Counted from the first letter of the stretch, positions 1-56,455 are shown. The stretch: 59,060 nucleotides of DNA from an uncultured Lachnospiraceae bacterium (GCA_946637865.1 CAMPBM010000001.1:1-59060), one strand, 5' to 3'. The notes: generated from the sequence alone by a model not told the origin. Numbers and translations are program-made.

Positions 1-70
1 AATATATTGCTAGCTCTTACATAATTTTAATTTTTGACTACTCTACTTTAATAGCTACCTGAATTGTAAC
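1..70 (-). mobile_element. Partial GTTACAG-type palindromic element (left-arm type, reverse orientation), truncated by the window start
   Basis: Reverse complement of 1-70 reads GTTACAATTCAGGTAGCTATTAAAGTAGAGTAGTCAAAAATTAAAATTATGTAAGAGCTAGCAATATATT. This is colinear with the left arm of the 34194 element and nearly identical to 59006-59060. Confidence 0.7.
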
Positions 71-7064: not shown

Positions 7065-7241
7065 ATGTTTTTAAAATTATTAGTTAGTTTGTTTGGTATC
7101 TTAGCTTTTATAAAAAATATTTCTTATTCTATTTATGAATATAAGAATAATAGCAATACCGTTGGTGCATTTTTCGTTTGTAGTTTAAGTTTTGTAAGCA
7201 TTACTATTCTGAATCTAGTTTTGTTCTTTATTAAGTTTTGA
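7065..7241 (+). CDS. 58-aa two-TM membrane peptide, possible germinant-receptor D subunit
   Basis: AAAGGAG RBS 7 nt upstream. Sequence MFLKLLVSLFGILAFIKN...VGAFFVCSLSFVSITILNLVLFFIKF. Lies immediately downstream of the ger operon. Below the ORF-track length cutoff. Confidence 0.4.
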   Translation: MFLKLLVSLFGILAFIKNISYSIYEYKNNSNTVGAFFVCSLSFVSITILNLVLFFIKF

Positions 7242-7339
7242 AATGGTGGACGGTTTGAAATTGGGGACGGGGATTTTTTTTGAAATTGGGGACGGAGATT
7301 TCAAATCCCCGTCCCCAATTTCAACCCGTCCCCAATTTC
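7240..7339. repeat. Array of GAAATTGGGGACGG units (D-type): three direct plus two inverted, forming a compound hairpin
   Basis: GAAATGGTGGACGG, GAAATTGGGGACGG twice, then CCGTCCCCAATTTC twice. Sits between convergent genes and probably acts as a bidirectional terminator. Confidence 0.8.
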
Positions 7340-7348
7340 AAAAACCAA

Positions 7349-9640
7349 TTAAACCACTCTGCAAAACGACACTCTTCTCATTTCCTTATTAGCTTCAATA
7401 ACTCTAATTCTCATCTTATCTCCAATATTAAATAACTCCCCGCTGTTTTCTCCAATTAATTGTTTATGTTCTTCATCATAGATAAAATACTCTTCTCCAA
7501 GATTTTCAAATCTTATTAAACCTTCAACTGTGCTTTCTAGCTCCACAAAAACACCAAAAGAAGTAATATTAGAAATAATCCCCTCGTATTCTTCACCAAC
7601 TTTAGACTGCATATATTCAGCTTTCTTTATATCAACACTATCCCTTTCCACCTTTTGAGCTACCTTTTCTCTTTCAGATGAAGTTCTCGCATACTTAGTT
7701 GCCTCATCCGAATATTTCTCTAATTCATCATCAGATATGTTATATCCTTTTTCTAAATATCTAGAAATAATCCTGTGTATAAATAAATCTGGATACCTTC
7801 TAATTGGTGATGTGAAGTGACAATAGTATTTACTAGCTATTCCAAAATGTCCCCTATTTTCACTCTCGTATTGAGCAACTTTTAGGGTTCTTAATATCAA
7901 GTTAGATACCACTCTTTCCTCAGGCTTTCCCTTAACTTCTTCTAATACTTCAGCAAATGCTTTAGGATGAATATTATCTTTATTAGCCTTTATCCTATAT
8001 CCTAAATTCCATATAAACGTATTAAGTTCTCTTACTTTCTCCATATCTGGTGCTGGATGCACTCTATATATAAATGGTGCTTCTAACCAAAAAAATTTTT
8101 CAGCGACAGTTTCATTTGCAATAAGCATAAATTGCTCTATTATCTCATTAGCAAAGGTTATTTCATATTTTTTAACGTCGATGGCGACTCCATTTTCATC
8201 CAATATTATTTTACTCTCTGGAATATCTAGGTCTAAACTTCCATCTTTTTCCCTCTTTTTCTTTAAAATCATAGCTAAGTCGGACATTAATTTAAGACTA
8301 TTAAAATACTGCTCGTATTCCTTAATTATCTTGAATTCTTCTTTACACTTAATAGTTGCATCACTGTTTTTAATTTCTACGCTATCAATAGTTTCTTTCA
8401 TCATTTCATTATTATTTTTTTCAATATTTTCAATGTATGCAAAATTTTTGGAGTTACTAGCATTCTCTGCTTTTTCCTTTTTTCTTAAATTCTCTTTTAA
8501 TTTAAGATATTCTAGTATCTTATGAACACCATTATAACTCATTCTCTTCGTAACTCTAATAATACTTTTGTGAATATCAGAAGATATAACCTGTCCCTTA
8601 CTATTTATCTCCATTATTACAGACAATGCAAATCTATCTTGCCCTTCATTTAAACTACAAATACCATTAGACAATTCTTTTGGTAACATTGGAATTACTC
8701 TGTCCATCATATATATGCTAGTACCTCTTAATATTGCTTCCCTGTCTAATTGAGAATTTTCCTTAACGTAATTGCTCACATCTGCTATATGCACACCTAA
8801 TACAAAATTTCCAGAATCATTTATTTCGACACATACAGCGTCATCCAGATCTTTAGCATCCTCACCATCAATTGTAAACATTTCCTTATTTCGTAAATCC
8901 AATCTCTTTTTTAAATCATCTTCTGTAATAGTCATTTTTAATGCTCTAGCTTCCTCTAATACTGGTTCTGGGAATTCGTATGGTAGGTTGTATTCCTTAA
9001 TTAAAGAAAGCATATCTACCCCGGCTTCATCCTTGTTTCCTAGTACTTCTACAATTTTTCCTTCAGCTTTTCTTCCTCTTTGAGCAAATTTTGTTATTTT
9101 TACTACTACTTTTTGATTATTTCTTGCTCTAGCGAAATCTTTTTTTGATATGAAAATGTCTGTTCCAAATTTTCTATCGTCTGGTATTACAAATCCAAAA
9201 TTCTTGCTATTTTTAAATACTCCTACCACCATATTTTTGCTATGTTCTAGTATTTTTAGTATTTTTCCCTCTTTATGCTGTGACTCATTATTGTTTACTT
9301 CAATTATTTTTACTAGTACTTTATCTTCATTTAGCGCATTGTTTAAATTACTGCTAGTAATAAATATTTCGTCAACGGAATCTTCTACTTTTACAAAGCC
9401 GAATCCTTTTTGATTTAGTGTTAATATTCCAACTTTATATATACTACTGTCTACTAGCATGTATTTTCCTTTTTTAGTTAATTCTACTTTACACTCAATT
9501 TCTAATTCTTTTAAAATTTGGTGGAACTCTGTATATTTTTCCTTTGGGACACCTAGAATAAACGCTAATTCTTTTGCTTTCATTGGTACATATTTCTCGT
9601 TAGACATGAAATCTAAAATTATTTTTCTATTTTCTTCCAT
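7349..9640 (-). CDS. rnr: Ribonuclease R
   Basis: 763 aa. Cold-shock-like N-domains, RNB domain motif DGEDAKDLDDAV, C-terminal S1 domain. Confidence 0.93.
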   Translation of the reverse strand: MEENRKIILDFMSNEKYVPMKAKELAFILGVPKEKYTEFHQILKELEIECKVELTKKGKYMLVDSSIYKVGILTLNQKGFGFVKVEDSVDEIFITSSNLNNALNEDKVLVKIIEVNNNESQHKEGKILKILEHSKNMVVGVFKNSKNFGFVIPDDRKFGTDIFISKKDFARARNNQKVVVKITKFAQRGRKAEGKIVEVLGNKDEAGVDMLSLIKEYNLPYEFPEPVLEEARALKMTITEDDLKKRLDLRNKEMFTIDGEDAKDLDDAVCVEINDSGNFVLGVHIADVSNYVKENSQLDREAILRGTSIYMMDRVIPMLPKELSNGICSLNEGQDRFALSVIMEINSKGQVISSDIHKSIIRVTKRMSYNGVHKILEYLKLKENLRKKEKAENASNSKNFAYIENIEKNNNEMMKETIDSVEIKNSDATIKCKEEFKIIKEYEQYFNSLKLMSDLAMILKKKREKDGSLDLDIPESKIILDENGVAIDVKKYEITFANEIIEQFMLIANETVAEKFFWLEAPFIYRVHPAPDMEKVRELNTFIWNLGYRIKANKDNIHPKAFAEVLEEVKGKPEERVVSNLILRTLKVAQYESENRGHFGIASKYYCHFTSPIRRYPDLFIHRIISRYLEKGYNISDDELEKYSDEATKYARTSSEREKVAQKVERDSVDIKKAEYMQSKVGEEYEGIISNITSFGVFVELESTVEGLIRFENLGEEYFIYDEEHKQLIGENSGELFNIGDKMRIRVIEANKEMRRVSFCRVV

Positions 9641-12503: not shown

Positions 12504-12608
12504 GTTACAGGTCAGCCGTTTTTTCTGAGTAGTCCAATATAAGAATTATGTAAGAGCTAGCAATATATTAATAACGTAGTACAAAGTGCTCCGCTACAAG
12601 GGGATTAC
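12504..12608 (+). mobile_element. Truncated GTTACAG-type element (left arm only) joined to an E-type repeat right half
   Basis: GTTACAGGTCAGCC...GAGTAGTCCAATATAAGAATTATGTAAGAGCTAGCAATATATTAA matches 34194-34262, then switches to TGCTCCGCTACAAGGGGATTAC. Confidence 0.7.
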
Positions 12609-12625
12609 TCGACCGTCATATTTGC

Positions 12626-31161: not shown

Positions 31162-31499
31162 TTGCAGTTAGTTAACCATAATACTTTCAGGTGTCAGCAT
31201 TGCTTCGTTTAGGGAAATATTTCCAATTCCTTCGGAGAATAAAATATTAAAAATAAAAATTTTTGAAAATATTAACGTAGGATTCTTACAGTTCCTTAGC
31301 AGTAACACCACTTGAGGGTGCGCAAGCTGCCCTCTGCGGAGAGGCTCAAGGGTGTAACGCTTAGGAACTGTTGAATCCGAAGATTACATTTTCAAAAATT
31401 TTTATTTTTAATATTTTATTCTCTCGGCAACCACTCCCCAAAATTTCCCCAAACGTAGCAATACTGACGCCTGAAAGTATTATGGTTAACTAACTGCAA
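31162..31499. repeat. 338-nt imperfect palindrome (family C), arms of about 150 nt around a ~40-nt GC-rich centre
   Basis: TTGCAGTTAGTTAACCATAATACTTTCAGG at 31162 is mirrored exactly at 31470-31499. The internal block ATTAAAAATAAAAATTTTTGAAAAT is also mirrored. Centre is GAGGGTGCGCAAGCTGCCCTCTGCGGAGAGGCTCAAGGG. Confidence 0.85.
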
Positions 31500-31786: not shown

Positions 31787-32662
31787 TTAAATATTATTCA
31801 GTTTTTCTACCTCCAATTCTGGATCAATTTTTTCTTTTGCTAGTGCCATATACTTGACAATACCACTATATTCAATTCCCATTATATCAGCCAGTACAAA
31901 TGAATTTATGCCATTAGCTAACGCATTAACAGCAACGTAATCTCTAATATTACTATACGTTATTGACGGAATATCTAGCTTTTTACATATTGCATGAAGT
32001 CTATAATTTGCCGTCCTTGGTTCTACTGGAGTATTTGACCCTGAGGCCACATATCTCTCCACTTGCATGCTTTTGGCTAGTAAGATTCTCAAGAGCTTAG
32101 TCGGTATAGGAATGTCCCTCGGTGTAATATTTATTTCTTCTAAAACCGTTTTTGACTCATTGCCTTCATATGCACTTATTCTCTTCAAATTTCTTCTGAC
32201 TTTGATAACACCCTTTATCAAATCAACGTCAGACCATTTTAGAGCGCATAACTCGCTAATTTTAAGACCTGTGTACATTACACAAATTATTCCTAAATTA
32301 TTAGGAGTAATATCCTTTAGAACATAATCCTTTAGAACTTCAAACTGTTCTTTTGAAACCAGTTTGATATTTTCTTTCTTCTTTGGAATAATCTTTTCTT
32401 CATATCCGTTTTCGTTGAATTCCAGAACCCTTCCAACCAGTTGCATTATGCTACTTTTGGTTCTTTCTTTGTTCTTCCGTTGGCTGTTTTCTGTTAACTC
32501 TAATATAAGTTGAGTATCTTTTACATCAAACTCTCCTATTATAGGGTTTATTGATTTTAAACGATTTTCATACGTACTATATGACGCATGAGATACTCGC
32601 TCCTTTTGGTATTCTAGCCATTCCTGGGCTACCTCTCTGAATGTCCGTTTCTCTTTACTCAT
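31787..32662 (-). CDS. Tyrosine recombinase / phage-integrase family protein
   Basis: 291 aa. SAM-like N-domain. Box I-like TGLKISELCALKWSDVD and C-terminal NIRDY...GIVKY segments. Confidence 0.75.
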   Translation of the reverse strand: MSKEKRTFREVAQEWLEYQKERVSHASYSTYENRLKSINPIIGEFDVKDTQLILELTENSQRKNKERTKSSIMQLVGRVLEFNENGYEEKIIPKKKENIKLVSKEQFEVLKDYVLKDITPNNLGIICVMYTGLKISELCALKWSDVDLIKGVIKVRRNLKRISAYEGNESKTVLEEINITPRDIPIPTKLLRILLAKSMQVERYVASGSNTPVEPRTANYRLHAICKKLDIPSITYSNIRDYVAVNALANGINSFVLADIMGIEYSGIVKYMALAKEKIDPELEVEKLNNI

Positions 32663-34082: not shown

Positions 34083-34099
34083 CTATGTTCCTTTCTTTT

Positions 34100-34180
34100 A
34101 ATTGGGGACGGAGATTTTTTTAAATTTTTGAAATTGGGGACAGAGATTCTTTTAATTTTTGGAAATCTGTTTCCCATTTC
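34100..34180. repeat. D-type GGGGACGG units (two direct, one degenerate inverted)
   Basis: AATTGGGGACGGAGAT, GAAATTGGGGACAGAGAT, GGAAATCTGTTTCCCATTTC. Confidence 0.7.
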
Positions 34181-34193
34181 ATGGAGTACGCTG

Positions 34194-34467
34194 GTTACAG
34201 GTCAGCCATTATTGTTGAGTAGTCCAATATAAGAATTATGTAAGAGCTAGCAATATATTAACAACGTAGTACAAAGCGCGCAGTTTGGTACGTTTAATCA
34301 AATGGATAAAAGGATTACACCATCACTAAAATCCTTCTCACACTTCAAAATCCTTTTATCTTTTGATTAAACCGACCAGCAAGCTTACGGAGTGTTAATA
34401 TATTGTAAGCGATTACATAATTCTTATATTGGACGGCTTATTGCAAAAGCCCATGCTGACCTGTAAC
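34194..34467 (+). mobile_element. 274-nt hairpin MITE, family A (GTTACAGGTCAGC...GCTGACCTGTAAC)
   Basis: 13-bp perfect termini, long imperfect arms, conserved core and an inner hairpin. 8-bp duplication GTACGCTG at 34186-34193 and 34468-34475. Confidence 0.9.
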
Positions 34468-34574
34468 GTACGCTGATCTCAGCTACAAGTGGTATTATTT
34501 TTCTATTATATGAATTAGTCCAGTACAATATTGGTTGTACTGGACATTTTGCTATCTGTTGGGAATTATAACGA

Positions 34575-37031: not shown

Positions 37032-37094
37032 GTTACAGGTCAGCCTTGAAACAAATCAAGACCGTCCCCAAATGTTTCAAGGCTGACCTGTAAC
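37032..37094. mobile_element. 63-nt mini-element: family A termini enclosing one D-type unit
   Basis: GTTACAGGTCAGCC-TTGAAACAAATCAAGACCGTCCCCAAATGTTTCAA-GGCTGACCTGTAAC. 8-bp duplication AAAAAATA at 37024-37031 and 37095-37102. Confidence 0.85.
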
Positions 37095-42356: not shown

Positions 42357-42630
42357 GTTACAATTCACGTTTTTTGCAATAAGCCGTCCAATATAAGAAT
42401 TATGTAATCGCAAAAAAACATATTAACATTCCGCAAACTTGCTGGCTCGGCTTTATCAAAAAGCAAAAGGAATATATGATGTCGTGTAAAGTTTCAATAC
42501 AGTTTATTCCTTTTGCACTTTTTGACAAACCTTGCCAAACTGCGCGTTTAGGGCTCCATTGTTAATATGTTTTTTTGTTCTTACATAATTCTTATATTGG
42601 ACTACTCAACTATAATGGCTGACCTGTAAC
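42357..42630 (-). mobile_element. 274-nt hairpin MITE, family A, inverted relative to 34194-34467
   Basis: Same length and the same outer arm blocks (GAGTAGTCCAATATAAGAATTATGTAAG; TTACATAATTCTTATATTGGACGGCTTATTGCAAAA), with the conserved core boxes. No clean TSD. Confidence 0.85.
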
Positions 42631-43774: not shown

Positions 43775-43906
43775 GAATCTTCGATTTCCTTTAGAGCACA
43801 ATGTGCTCCGCTACAAAGCAATTACTTCCTTATTATACTAGAAACAAGAAAATTCTACGATTCTTCTTTAGAACACAACGTGCACCGCTACGAAAGCAAT
43901 TACTAG
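43775..43906 (+). repeat. Two tandem E-type REP-like units
   Basis: GAATCTTCGATTTCCTTTAGAGCACAATGTGCTCCGCTACAAAGCAATTACTTCCTTATTATAC and AATTCTACGATTCTTCTTTAGAACACAACGTGCACCGCTACGAAAGCAATTACTAG. Confidence 0.8.
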
Positions 43907-47790: not shown

Positions 47791-47862
47791 ACATTTTTGG
47801 TACAAAAAAAATGCTTAGGCAGTTGGTGTATGCTAATTTCAACAAGAAATAGGAAAATTTTT

Positions 47863-47919
47863 AATTCTTTCTTTGGAGCACAATGTGCTCCGCTACGAAA
47901 CAATTACTTTTCTATTGTA
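47863..47919 (+). repeat. E-type REP-like unit
   Basis: AATTCTTTCTTTGGAGCACAATGTGCTCCGCTACGAAACAATTACTTTTCTATTGTA. Confidence 0.8.
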
Positions 47920-49148: not shown

Positions 49149-49237
49149 TATATAAATTTATTTTAATTAATTGGTAAAAATATACTTTTTTACTTTCCTG
49201 ATATTGGAAACAAAGTAGACCATTCCTAAATGCCTCA

Positions 49238-49312
49238 TTTTTGAAACAAAACAAGACCGTCCCCAAATGTTTCATTTTTGAAACAAAACAGGACCGTCCC
49301 CAAATGTTTCAA
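49238..49312. repeat. Two tandem D-type units, each a hairpin TGAAACA...GACCGTCCCCAAATGTTTCA
   Basis: TTTTTGAAACAAAACAAGACCGTCCCCAAATGTTTCA, then a second copy with one substitution (A to G). Confidence 0.8.
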
Positions 49313-49313
49313 A

Positions 49314-49361
49314 GCAAAAAAAGACCTTGCAAAGAAATCATTTAAAACTCCTTTGCAAGGC
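49314..49361 (-). terminator. Intrinsic terminator after the desulfoferrodoxin gene
   Basis: Minus strand GCCTTGCAAAG...CTTTGCAAGGTC followed by TTTTTTT. Confidence 0.7.
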
Positions 49362-49769: not shown

Positions 49770-49858
49770 CCTTTCACTTTAATATGAGTTCATTATAACA
49801 CTCACTCAAACAATACGCAAACGCTTTTATTTAAATTTTTTACGTTCTATGAAACTAC

Positions 49859-50020
49859 GTTACAGGTTCAGGTGCCCATAATGTTGATGAAATATATTAA
49901 TACGAAGTGGAGTGCGCAGTTTGGCGCTCCCACCTAACGTCTTTTTCACATATCATAGCGCCAGCAAACGAACGGAGTATTAATATATTTCATCAACATT
50001 ATGGGCACCTGAATTGTAAC
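49859..50020 (+). mobile_element. 162-nt hairpin MITE, family B, second copy
   Basis: Identical to 22501-22661 except for one extra G at position 7. 8-bp duplication GAAACTAC at 49851-49858 and 50021-50028. Confidence 0.9.
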
Positions 50021-50024
50021 GAAA

Positions 50025-52667
50025 CTACATGTTACTTAACCTTTCCACCGTATTTTTCAACATTTCCTCATATTTAGCAAGTTTTTCCTTCTCCTCATTA
50101 ATCTTGCTTTCAGGAGCCTTACTTACAAAGCCTTGATTAGAAAGCATCTTCTTTGCTCTTTCTACCTCCGCTTCCAATCTTGTTTTTTCGTTTTCTAACC
50201 TCTCTTTTTCAGCTTCAATATCTACTAAATCCTCAAACGGAATATACAACTCTAAATCAGCTTGCATTATTGAAATTGCATTTGATGGAATATTTTCTTT
50301 ATTATTTTGAACAACTATCTCATCTCCAAAGGCTAATTTCTGTAGGAAAGTTTTACTTTGATTAATCAAATCCTCATATTTTTCAGTTACAAATAACAAT
50401 TTAGCTTTTTTTGATGGATGAACATTCATATTATTTCTAATATTTCTTACCTCTCCAATAATAGCTTTTAATATTTCAATCTCATTTTCCTCTGCTTCAA
50501 AATTTAAATCCATACTATATTTAGGCCATGCTGATGTCATTATTGTTTCATCATTATTATATAACTTTGTATAGATTTCCTCTGTTACAAAAGGCATTAT
50601 TGGATGTAGCATTTTCAAACTATACTCTAAAACTGTGTTTAATGTGTATTGTGCTTCTCTTCTAGTGCTACACTCTTTGTCATATAAACGAGGTTTAACC
50701 ATTTCAATATACCAGTCACAGAACTCGTTCCATATAAAATCATATATTTTCTGCGTAGCAACTCCTAAGTCATAATTATCTATGTTAGTAGCCATTTCTT
50801 GCGCTAACCTGTTAGCTTTTGAAATAATCCACTTATCTTCTTTGCATAGTTTTTCTATGTTATATTTTTCATCATAATCCTCTAGATTCATCAGTACAAA
50901 CTTTGAAGCATTCCATAATTTATTTGCAAAATTTGCACCCTGCTCCACCTTTGCAGGAATGTATCTTATATCATTTCCAAAAGAAATACCCAAAACCAAA
51001 GAGAATCTTAATGCATCTGCACCGTATTCAGCAATTACATCTAGTGGATCTACACCGTTTCCCAAAGTTTTACTCATCTTTCTACCTTGGTCATCTCTAA
51101 CCATTCCATGAATTATTATATCAGAGAACGGCTTTTTACCAACATATTCTAGACCTGAGAAAATCATTCTTGAAATCCACAAAGAAATAATTTCATAACC
51201 AGTTACAATAGTATTTGTAGGATAGAAAGTTTCTAAGTCCTCTGTTTTTTCAGGCCAACCTAATGTAGAAAAAGGCCATAAAGCTGAACTAAACCAAGTA
51301 TCTAATGTATCTGGATCTTGTGTTAACTTAGTATTACCACATTTAGAGCATGCATCTGGCATACTTCTAGAAACGTGTATTTCCCCACAATTATCGCAAT
51401 AATACGCTGGTATTCTATGTCCCCAATATAATTGTCTTGAGATACACCAATCTTGTAAATTTTCCATCCAGTTGAAGTAGGTTTTATCATATTTATTAGG
51501 AATAAACCTAATATCCCCGTTTCTTACTGCTTCAATAGCTGGTTTTGCAAGCTCTCCCATTTTTACAAACCATTGGTCTGAAATTGTTGGTTCTATAGTT
51601 GTCTTGCATCTCTCGCATTTTGCTACATTATGTGTATAGTCTTCTATTTTCACTAAATATCCTTGTTCTTCAAGCATTTTAACTATAATTGGTCTTGCTT
51701 CATACGCATTCATTCCTGCTACTTCTGGAATTAAATCGTTCATTATTAAATTACTATCAAACACTTCTACAAACTCCAAATTATTCTTCAAGCCTGCTTG
51801 ATAGTCGTTTGGATCGTGGCAAGGTGTTAATTTAACACAACCTGTTCCAAATTCCATATCTACAAAAGGATCAGCAATAATTGGAATTTCTTTATTCATT
51901 ATCGGCAAAATACATTTCTTCCCAATAAGATGTTTGAATCTCTCATCCTTTGGATTTACAGCAACACCAGTATCTCCTAGCATTGTTTCTGGTCTTGTTG
52001 TAGCTACTACTAAATACTCATCACTTTCGGTGTCGCTAGTTTTTATTGGATATTTAATATGCCAAATATGTGATGCTTCTTCTTTATACTCTACCTCTGC
52101 ATCTGAAATTGATGTTTTACAATTTGGACACCAGTTTATCATCCTTTTTCCTTTATAAATATATCCTTTTTCGTATAGTCTAAAGAATACCTCTTCAACT
52201 GCATTTGATAGTCCCTCATCCATGGTAAAACGACTTCTTGACCAATCACAAGAACATCCCATTTTACGTTGTTGTTTCTGTATTGTACCACCATATAGAT
52301 GTGTCCATTCCCAAGCTTTTTCAAGAAACTGCTCTCTAGTTAAATCTGATTTTTTTATTCCTTTCTCACGTAAACTTTGAACAACCTTCATTTCTGTTGA
52401 GATAGCAGCATGATCCGTACCTGGTAGCCAAAGCGTATTAAAACCTTGCATTCTCTTGTATCTTATTAAAAAATCTTGAATTGATGCATCTAGTGCATGT
52501 CCCATATGTAACTTACCTGTAACATTTGGAGGTGGCATCATAATACAATAACTCTCAGAATTTTTATCCATACTTGGTTTAAAATATCCGCTCTCCTCCC
52601 ACTTTTTATATAAAATATCTTCGAAATCTTTTGGATTATATTTGTCATTTAATTCATGTTTCATCAT
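50025..52667 (-). CDS. valS: Valine--tRNA ligase
   Basis: 880 aa. HIGH-type GKLHMGHAL, KMSKTLGN, C-terminal coiled coil. Confidence 0.95.
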   Translation of the reverse strand: MMKHELNDKYNPKDFEDILYKKWEESGYFKPSMDKNSESYCIMMPPPNVTGKLHMGHALDASIQDFLIRYKRMQGFNTLWLPGTDHAAISTEMKVVQSLREKGIKKSDLTREQFLEKAWEWTHLYGGTIQKQQRKMGCSCDWSRSRFTMDEGLSNAVEEVFFRLYEKGYIYKGKRMINWCPNCKTSISDAEVEYKEEASHIWHIKYPIKTSDTESDEYLVVATTRPETMLGDTGVAVNPKDERFKHLIGKKCILPIMNKEIPIIADPFVDMEFGTGCVKLTPCHDPNDYQAGLKNNLEFVEVFDSNLIMNDLIPEVAGMNAYEARPIIVKMLEEQGYLVKIEDYTHNVAKCERCKTTIEPTISDQWFVKMGELAKPAIEAVRNGDIRFIPNKYDKTYFNWMENLQDWCISRQLYWGHRIPAYYCDNCGEIHVSRSMPDACSKCGNTKLTQDPDTLDTWFSSALWPFSTLGWPEKTEDLETFYPTNTIVTGYEIISLWISRMIFSGLEYVGKKPFSDIIIHGMVRDDQGRKMSKTLGNGVDPLDVIAEYGADALRFSLVLGISFGNDIRYIPAKVEQGANFANKLWNASKFVLMNLEDYDEKYNIEKLCKEDKWIISKANRLAQEMATNIDNYDLGVATQKIYDFIWNEFCDWYIEMVKPRLYDKECSTRREAQYTLNTVLEYSLKMLHPIMPFVTEEIYTKLYNNDETIMTSAWPKYSMDLNFEAEENEIEILKAIIGEVRNIRNNMNVHPSKKAKLLFVTEKYEDLINQSKTFLQKLAFGDEIVVQNNKENIPSNAISIMQADLELYIPFEDLVDIEAEKERLENEKTRLEAEVERAKKMLSNQGFVSKAPESKINEEKEKLAKYEEMLKNTVERLSNM

Positions 52668-52690: not shown

Positions 52691-52757
52691 GAAAATCTTC
52701 GATTTTCTTTGGAGCACATTATGCTCCACTACGAATGGGGTAACTTTCCTATTGTAC
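52691..52757 (+). repeat. E-type REP-like unit in the valS upstream region
   Basis: GAAAATCTTCGATTTTCTTTGGAGCACATTATGCTCCACTACGAATGGGGTAACTTTCCTATTGTAC. Confidence 0.8.
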
Positions 52758-56319: not shown

Positions 56320-56327
56320 AGTATATA

Positions 56328-56455
56328 ATTCTTTGGAGCACAATGTGCTCGTATAATCAATTATATAGAAAATAATCTATATAATTGATTATTTTTTATA
56401 TAATTGATTATACGAGTACATTGTGCTCCATTAAAATATTACTTTTCCATTGTAT
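56328..56455. repeat. E-type unit whose central hairpin is expanded by a nested palindrome
   Basis: GGAGCACAATGTGCTCGTATAATCAATTATATA ... TATATAATTGATTATACGAGTACATTGTGCTCC (33-bp arms, 1 mismatch), then the usual ...ATTACTTTTCCATTGTAT tail. Confidence 0.75.

Follow-up and report, generated by a model that had tools for sequence, protein, structure and literature searches.

Among the described repeats, the REP and REPIN sequences served by RAYT proteins, a system of the IS200/IS605 type of single-stranded DNA (ssDNA) transposition, come closest to the elements described here, since both are multi-copy, intergenic and hairpin-forming (PMC3116915, PMC8266576, PMC3733652). Compensatory changes are frequent in REPIN hairpins (PMC3116915), and the RAYT protein TnpA-REP requires both the GTAG tag and the bulge of the stem, its activity being abolished when pairing is restored (PMC8266576, PMC3733652). 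The likeness extends to the presence of GTAG at one foot only, to stem irregularities that are conserved while compensatory changes occur elsewhere in the stem, to a preference for positions just downstream of genes, to the occupation of the same sites across related species and to a strand asymmetry. The differences are also substantial. A REP measures 20-40 bp and a REPIN about 100 bp, whereas the present elements span 190-270 bp; their best-conserved part is a centre of 80-150 nt, the arms being 20-45 nt long and made of conserved and variable blocks; the host belongs to the Clostridia, and the 1.2 Mb searched around the elements yielded neither a RAYT nor a Y1 gene; and in the stretch of 59,060 nucleotides analysed as a whole (hereafter the window) the element is also wrapped in terminal repeats with target duplications. 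RAYT systems have been described mainly from Proteobacteria. Neither Firmicutes nor Clostridia are mentioned in the survey of tagged REPs.

Classical MITEs (Correia, RUP, ERIC-like) resemble the present elements by their small size, their non-coding nature, their insertion next to genes and the potential of the whole element to form a hairpin, to which the window adds terminal inverted repeats, 8-bp duplications and identical recent copies. Unlike in classical MITEs, the terminal repeats are only 13-14 bp long and specific to the window's genome, and the conserved part is internal, polar and common to unrelated arm families and species, with a biased orientation. Integron attC sites are likewise imperfect palindromes recognised as structures, with a variable stem sequence and a conserved structure, and in attC the unpaired spacer and extrahelical bases give the choice of strand. 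The ends of the present elements, however, do not fit the R''/R' consensus (RYYYAAC / GTTRRRY), and they lie between housekeeping genes with neither cassette arrays nor IntI. Quasipalindromes, finally, are perfected by intrastrand template switching during replication, which results in fast and exact compensation and explains simultaneous complementary changes of both arms without selection on RNA (PMC7202029). This is a mutational process and not an element, and acting alone it would erase the bubble and bulges described below, which persist.

The comparisons presented here show a new family of interspersed repeats, widely distributed, that can form hairpins and are conserved and polar at their centre, a matching description of which was not found in Rfam or in a limited literature search. 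In kind the family belongs to the already known REP, REPIN or MITE-like palindromic repeats; as judged from the copies collected, it is unusual in its association of a conserved centre with variable arms, in the large size of its hairpin and in the nesting of the module in a second transposon shell.

Elements of the window and their terminal shell

The window derives from the chromosome of a spore-forming member of the Clostridia and has a G+C content of about 30%; the genes nearby include those for SpoIVA, GerA, ClpX/ClpP, trigger factor, RarA/MgsA and RuvA, as well as RNase R, a UvrD-like helicase, LysRS and ValRS. At least seven copies or fragments of the elements are present in this 59-kb contig. 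Four of them had been located by the first-pass annotation, and their coordinates, boxes, stems and inner hairpins are as it described them, far above chance.

The first copy of family A (A1; 34194-34467, plus strand) consists of GTTACAGGTCAGC terminal inverted repeats around a complete long-core element and is flanked by a perfect 8-bp target duplication, GTACGCTG (34186-34193 and 34468-34475). Within these repeats stands the form known from other species, or X element (34217-34448, plus strand), which runs from the foot GAGTAGTCC through an arm, the core and a second arm to GGACGGCTTATTGCAAAAGC, and the feet of which are asymmetric (GAGTAGTC against GACGGC). The left box, GCGCAGTTTGG, occupies 34278-34288 on the plus strand, its first 9 nt forming the 5' side of a conserved bubble, and the right box, CCAGCAAGCTTACGGAGTGTTAATAT, occupies 34376-34401 on the same strand, its AGCAA (34378-34382) forming the 3' side. 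The inner hairpin typical of the long (A-type) core lies between them (34293-34371, plus strand; arms 34293-34316 and 34349-34371), with a conserved bulge on its left strand and a variable loop, and the stem beside the core pairs 34251-34263 with 34393-34405. The second copy (A2) is inverted (42357-42630, minus strand; left box 42535-42545, right box 42420-42445), and a clean target duplication looked for at its ends was not found.

Family B combines a short core with unrelated arms and GTTACAGTTCAGG termini. Its first copy (B1; 22501-22661, plus strand) lies between perfect 8-bp duplications, TTTTAAGA (22493-22500 and 22662-22669), and the second (B2; 49859-50020, plus strand), 100% identical to B1 over 155 nt, between equally perfect 8-bp copies of GAAACTAC (49851-49858 and 50021-50028). 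The B1 duplication covers the stop codon (TAA) of an ORF at 22664-23128, and that of B2 the stop codon (TAG) of the valyl-tRNA synthetase gene (ValRS, 50025-52667); the upstream genes are thus intact and the element begins 2-4 nt past the gene.

The remaining copies are incomplete. A truncated family A copy (12504 to about 12590, plus strand), located between the trigger factor gene and clpP, retains the terminus, the left arm and about the first 25 nt of the core, beyond which an unrelated hairpin repeat takes over. The window is bounded on both sides by element arms, namely a partial element at 1-70 (minus strand), with an arm ending in a GTTACAATTCAGG terminus, and an arm at 59006-59060 (plus strand), which indicates that the contig broke inside repeats. 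The partial element at 1-70 lies just upstream of the same gene as full elements at two other loci (L011 and L025), the exact position being different. The elements are abundant and break assemblies of uncultured gut Clostridia.

All terminal inverted repeats of the window are 13-14 bp long and start with GTTACAG, reading GTTACAGGTCAGC / GCTGACCTGTAAC in family A and in a mini element, and GTTACAGTTCAGG / CCTGAATTGTAAC in family B. The mini element is a 63-bp MITE (37032-37094, unstranded) with GTTACAGGTCAGCC termini and a perfect 8-bp duplication, AAAAAATA, around another cargo, a GACCGTCCCC repeat unit; since the same termini enclose a different cargo, the terminal shell is separable from the core. 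The label of MITE given by the first-pass annotation is appropriate within the window, where terminal repeats are present and 8-bp duplications are found at A1, B1, B2 and the mini element (A2 lacks one), but it does not extend to other species, in which the same core is carried by GTAGAGTAG/GACGGC-footed elements devoid of GTTACAG termini. As far as these copies indicate, the GTTACAG shell is a secondary outer layer specific to the window's genome, and the conserved unit is the inner hairpin element. In that genome the module, enclosed by the GTTACAG repeats, is now mobile as a classical MITE with 8-bp target duplications, its shell having been active recently.

A polar centre within unrelated arms

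The left box occurs four times exactly in the window and five times when one mismatch is allowed, where chance would give 0.18; for the right box, CCAGCAAR-N3-RCGGARTRTTAATAT, four matches compare with a chance expectation of 0.00. Outside the window, an exact scan with a relaxed right box, applied to one genome per species, retrieved the core at 46 loci in at least nine uncultured Clostridia MAGs originating from rabbit, human, Hadza and rumen samples, and a left-box scan of metagenomes matched at least 120 loci, the core being present in more than 100 metagenome contigs. Because only one box is imposed in each scan, the other serves as an independent check. Elements found with the right box carry an exact left box in 37 of 45 cases and a left box with one mismatch in four of 45; conversely, 86 of the 102 left-box matches show the exact right-box pattern, CCAG[CT]AA then TTAATATAT, and four others CCAGYAA with a variant terminal repeat. 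Among the 12 left, at least nine are chance matches in unrelated DNA, mostly tRNA genes, retrieved on account of a D-arm sequence identical to the left box.

These comparisons show the core to be the central part of interspersed DNA palindromes of 190-270 bp that form a family widely distributed in uncultured, spore-forming, low-G+C gut Clostridia, each copy of which can be folded into one long hairpin. The first-pass annotation had rightly recognised a conserved polar module common to elements with different arms, at least eight arm families carrying the same boxes; it had described the core as shared by two MITE subfamilies, while the family is far wider and lacks GTTACAG ends in other species.

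Three size classes of the core were distinguished: a short one, with about 78 nt between TTAA repeats; a long one with an inner hairpin, which corresponds to family A and is also found in Lapin-001 and in many metagenomes; and a rare mini one. The apex is wholly different between classes. The same boxes are set within at least eight unrelated arm sequences, the arm types being X-long, the short-armed UMGS type, that of family B and those of loci L023, L029, L060, L091 and L149. In relatives, the element comprises, from 5' to 3', a short 5' segment, GTAGAGTAGTC, a variable stretch of about 11 nt, TTATGTAA, a variable stretch of 7-9 nt and AAATATATTAA-Y-AT; the core and the mirror-image arm follow, then GACGGC-N3-CTGCAAAAGC. 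The X arms have conserved blocks common to several species, and no X-type arm without a core was found in the 1.2 Mb of DNA sampled. An ATG at the core's left edge hardly varies.

The boxes form a conserved bubble of 9 x 5 nt, GCGCAGTTT opposite AG[CT]AA, and the other conserved irregularities are a bulged A, a 3-nt bulge and, in the long class, the bulge of the inner hairpin. The foot is one-sided as well, the GTAG-containing GTAGAGTAGTC lying opposite GACGGC..CTGCAAAAGC, with the tag on one side only as GTAGAGTAG-TC before the stem, where information content is high (76 aligned copies). The feet, GAGTAGTC and GACGGC, lack complementarity to each other, and at pair 22:215 the consensus is a T.G opposition. 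Symmetrised variants are rare and were seen at L072 and L160, where CTTCAT, the complement of ATGAAG on the left, replaces CGGAAT on the right. These irregularities of the hairpin are kept from one species and one arm family to another, whereas the arms themselves are wholly replaced, and they are under constraint, since they persist although a homogenising process should erase them. The architecture thus inverts the rule of MITEs and REPINs, the centre being conserved and polar and the arms fast-changing yet perfectly complementary.

Several other identities were considered for the core and rejected. It is not coding, its short ORFs being broken by stops and 1-nt indels between copies, and an invertible promoter (inverton) was ruled out as no copy has its core reversed with respect to the asymmetric feet. 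A tRNA origin was discarded: the match is limited to the D-arm-like box of 11-13 nt, ARAGORN predicted no tRNA, and the tRNA genes retrieved with the left box are chance matches. The resemblance of the TTATGTAA block to a XerD arm was judged to be an 8-nt coincidence. The left box of A1 (34278-34288) is itself identical to a common tRNA D-arm sequence, a likeness that stops at the D-arm, and genuine tRNA genes were drawn in by the left-box scan at L148, L155, L157, L159 and L162.

Some copies depart from the common layout. UMGS-type elements at L019, L079, L096, L150, L151, L013, L062 and L065 have the end of their right arm (..TTTTATTTTGCCGGC..TGCAAAAGC..) repeated in tandem behind them, one to three times, in a number that differs between near-identical strains. 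In two divergent copies (L015:3095-3188 and L029:2265-2360) the left box is replaced by GCGCTAG[CT]AAAGGCGC, which resembles the right box in direct, not inverted, orientation and is unable to pair with it.

Complementarity and placement of the elements

Among the 36 elements of the short class, 97.6% of cells are paired and two-sided changes affect 30 of 54 pairs, compared with 15.4 +/- 1.8 in shuffles (0 of 500 reaching 30), slid controls giving 6-16. As many as four Watson-Crick types coexist at a single pair, as at 54:161 (AU 17, UA 15, GC 2, CG 2), and pair 66:149 has UA 21, CG 14 and GC 1. The pairs predicted inside the core of this class never vary, and are therefore uninformative on pairing either way. 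In the long class (29 elements), the structure of which was written by hand for this test, 18 of 38 pairs have two-sided changes (shuffles 11.0 +/- 1.3, 0 of 500 reaching this; slid controls 1-5). Covariation there involves the helices flanking the bubble (17:148, UA 16/CG 13; 22:142, CG 15/UA 14; 28:139, GC 17/AU 12) and the inner hairpin (60:112, UA 15/CG 13). One-sided changes are rare, with about 12 cells versus 203 two-sided ones in the short class and 8 versus 123 in the long class, and single substitutions are already compensated within one genome at L017, L035 and L049 compared with their siblings. The compensatory change that had been noticed beside the core and in the inner hairpin thus holds on 36 and 29 independent sequences.

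The conclusion drawn from it by the first-pass annotation, a functional RNA, does not follow. Selection on an RNA helix should leave G-U pairs frequent, on the strand that is transcribed, and A-C pairs scarce. The arms of 132 unique elements provide 3762 pairs, distributed into 3650 Watson-Crick pairs, 27 G-T, 30 A-C and 55 transversion mismatches; since G-T and A-C are equally rare, the pattern fits maintenance of the palindrome at the DNA level and not selection on RNA. Nearly all changes lead from one Watson-Crick pair to another, in place of the G-U-tolerant and strand-specific covariation that characterises RNA families. Compensation does not by itself indicate an RNA function, and the unpaired boxes could act in RNA despite the scarcity of wobble pairs. 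A neutral palindrome had been considered as excluded, but the pattern is the one of DNA-level palindrome homogenisation, an alternative that the same annotation had named. Of the two possibilities that it left, a functional RNA or a folded ssDNA site, the near absence of wobble pairs speaks against the former, while recognition of ssDNA stays the best reading in view of the conserved boxes and bulges. The family represents a clean natural test case for distinguishing DNA-level palindrome maintenance from RNA-level covariation.

The elements are strictly intergenic, and an arm typically starts a few nucleotides past the upstream stop codon, the median gap being about 3-12 nt to the upstream gene versus 80-98 nt to the next one. 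Operons of essential genes are among their locations, as are the positions immediately past stop codons. Copies located inside operons such as gatCAB must be transcribed, and two elements of one gatCAB operon point in opposite ways. The core strand is on the C-rich strand in 101 of the 127 copies with a clear skew (about 80%), and in tandem-gene settings 45 copies are antisense versus 13 sense (78% in one orientation relative to transcription), a bias inseparable from gene direction, gene and replication direction being confounded in these genomes.

The same intergenic sites are filled across species, as illustrated by the gatC-gatA spacer (L022, L046, L076, L089) and by the sites shared between L011 and L025, L037 and L048, and L032 and L041. 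The same spacer can harbour a different core class or orientation from one species to another (L019 versus L043; L046 versus L076), copy number varies, and truncated and remnant copies occur. Sites devoid of the hairpin and keeping the outer segments (GTAGAATAGTC and a CAAAA-type tail) were observed at L061:8940-8990, L073:7468 and L041:1888, the first of them being the gatC-gatA spacer, in which L076 and L089 carry an element. Such sites may be footprints of excision or deletion, or unoccupied targets; together with the mixed classes and orientations at single spacers, they indicate turnover. When filled and empty sites were compared for the ends of the element, either the flanks were too diverged or the "empty" site kept the outer segments. 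Between L128 and L045, the flanks of which are 99.6% identical, a 137-nt indel polymorphism bounded by the direct repeat TGCAAAGCA lies exactly at the conserved 3' segment of the element.

Candidate partners, explanations and neighbouring repeats

The autonomous element with GTTACAG termini envisaged by the first-pass annotation did not appear: no autonomous IS with the same ends was found among 30 ORFs of the window (about the first 36 kb and the ORFs flanking copies), no autonomous IS or transposase in 1.2 Mb of related loci and no autonomous IS in viral contigs. HUH/Y1 transposases were searched by tblastn with IS608 TnpA and the E. coli RAYT (approximate sequences) and by scans for HUH..Y motifs, and neither these nor other transposases were found beside any element or in the 1.2 Mb, which cover about 8 kb around each copy. 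The only protein families recurring as neighbours are orthologous housekeeping genes. Full-length elements with an ORF between the boxes were absent from about 170 loci. Comparison by blastn with plasmids and phages gave no match, and in viral contigs the left box had no match, the right box one chance match and the terminal repeat 34 single matches at chance level, none with an inverted partner.

Individual candidates were discarded as well. Pairs of elements flanking a gene (L022, L076, L089) might have formed an autonomous unit, but the flanked genes are hsp33 and gatA. At L031, where the copy is limited to its right half and could have been the end of an IS, the neighbouring ORF on the minus strand is not transposase-like; by our own translation, and not by a database match, it resembles a housekeeping gene of the MTA/SAH-nucleosidase type. 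The divergent tyrosine recombinase of the window (31787-32662) has no homologue in the other element-bearing loci. An RAYT-like Y1 gene (HUH..Y..NP) flanked by GGGTCAGGCTTGAATAATTCC inverted repeats was observed in an unrelated metagenome contig, G+C-richer by eye (L157:5040-5560).

On the RNA side, the 59-kb window gave zero Rfam matches at the gathering score; L047 and L013 gave none at E <= 1, and at E <= 10 the matches were limited to generic long-hairpin models far below threshold, in agreement with the first-pass annotation, which did not recognise the motif as a described RNA family. Scans for promoter and terminator consensus detected none convincing inside the element.

We tentatively favour the reading of these repeats as REPIN-like non-autonomous DNA elements, the irregular hairpin of which would be read by a putative trans-acting enzyme. 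Complementarity of the arms would be preserved in the DNA itself, through intrastrand template switching or through repair within an extruded hairpin; the conserved irregularities would tell the strands apart and specify recognition and cleavage, and the enzyme would act on folded ssDNA, as RAYT (TnpA-REP) does on GTAG-tagged, bulged REP/REPIN hairpins. Such a strand-marking ssDNA mechanism would account for the orientation bias of about 80:20; the length of the elements, 5-10 times that of REPs, and a centre more conserved than the arms, opposite to the REPIN pattern, argue against this reading, as do the lack of a transposase among the housekeeping genes of the 1.2 Mb of loci, the description of RAYT systems mainly from Proteobacteria and a bias inseparable from gene direction. 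If a dedicated enzyme reads the irregular hairpin, REPIN-like persistent replicators would be extended to Firmicutes, and a new structure-specific DNA recognition module could be revealed. A bolder proposal, possible but doubtful, is that the bubble and GTAG-foot hairpin is the substrate of an ssDNA-processing enzyme representing a Firmicute counterpart of REPIN-RAYT with a larger, programmable-looking hairpin, or that the boxes are an RNA protein-binding module carried on mobile DNA. A functional structured RNA, co-transcribed with the upstream gene or made from its own promoter, in which the hairpin and its conserved bubble would stabilise the 3'-UTR, offer a site to RNase III or to a binding protein, or constitute a small RNA, would suit the position directly past stop codons (3-12 nt versus 80-98 nt), the 78% of tandem-gene copies in one orientation relative to transcription, the necessary transcription of copies inside operons such as gatCAB and the conserved unpaired boxes with covarying helices on their flanks. 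It is nevertheless unlikely, considering that wobble pairs are not enriched on either strand (27 G-T against 30 A-C in 3762 pairs) and one-sided changes are nearly absent, that Rfam gave no match even at E <= 1 to 10 save generic long-hairpin models below threshold, that no internal promoter or terminator is convincing, that 20% of copies have the other orientation, including both orientations in one operon, and that the apex is entirely different between core classes.

The terminal inverted repeats and 8-bp duplications of the window, the identity of the B copies and the hardly varying ATG of the core's left edge, which could be a relic start codon, are what a DDE-type MITE would leave, the boxes then being fused subterminal remains of a parent IS, bound as double-stranded sites by its transposase and conserved by recent spread. 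Yet in all other species the GTAGAGTAG/GACGGC-footed elements lack GTTACAG termini, the arms, which would hold the transposase sites, differ completely around a conserved centre, the reverse of what is expected of a MITE, none of the about 170 loci has a full-length element with an ORF between the boxes, L031 abutting a nucleosidase-like gene, and a bias of 80:20 is not expected; this origin is quite improbable. A host-domesticated site, the boxes of which would bind a chromosomal protein (nucleoid, topoisomerase or recombinase) and be retained as useful, as proposed for REP/BIME, would explain the strictly intergenic location and the same positions kept across species (gatC-gatA, L011/L025, L037/L048, L032/L041). 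The different classes and orientations at the same spacer (L019 versus L043; L046 versus L076), however, point to turnover and not to retention, as do the variable copy number and the truncated and remnant copies, and we know of no candidate protein, so that we give little credit to this explanation. It is very improbable, lastly, that the core is a small mobile insert targeting the AT-rich centre (AATATATT) of pre-existing palindromes, with arms of host sequence. Many unrelated arms do surround the same core, and the self-complementary AATATATT on both of its flanks can be read as an 8-bp duplication; but an X-type arm pair without core is absent from the 1.2 Mb, pairs within the ends of the supposed insert covary too (66:149, UA 21, CG 14, GC 1), and the blocks of the X arms conserved across species make the arms part of the unit.

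The window contains other repeats. Units of about 37 nt, TTGAAACA..GACCGTCCCCAAATGTTTCAA (GGGGACGG on the other strand), form tandem and inverted clusters like REP/BIME arrays at 7227-7352, 31090-31164, 34095-34153, 37046-37083 and 49204-49323; one such unit is the cargo of the 63-bp mini MITE and another is nested in the long-class apex of L166. A separate palindrome of about 340 bp (31162-31499) ends in TTGCAG../..CTGCAA and is richer in G+C at its centre; some 290 nt separate it from the divergent tyrosine recombinase gene (31787-32662, minus strand), to which it is downstream. A third family, consisting of the hairpin GGAGCACAATGTGCTCC followed by GCTACAAA, is present at 43776-43817, 43853-43894, 47858-47899, 52694-52735, 56325-56439 and 12585-12620, one copy abutting the truncated family A element (12504). 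Finally, tandem repeats with a period of 69 nt, and a spacing of 138 nt further on, occupy 27844-28306 within a BspA-type leucine-rich-repeat gene (27597-28742), a paralogue of which is located at 25784-27514.
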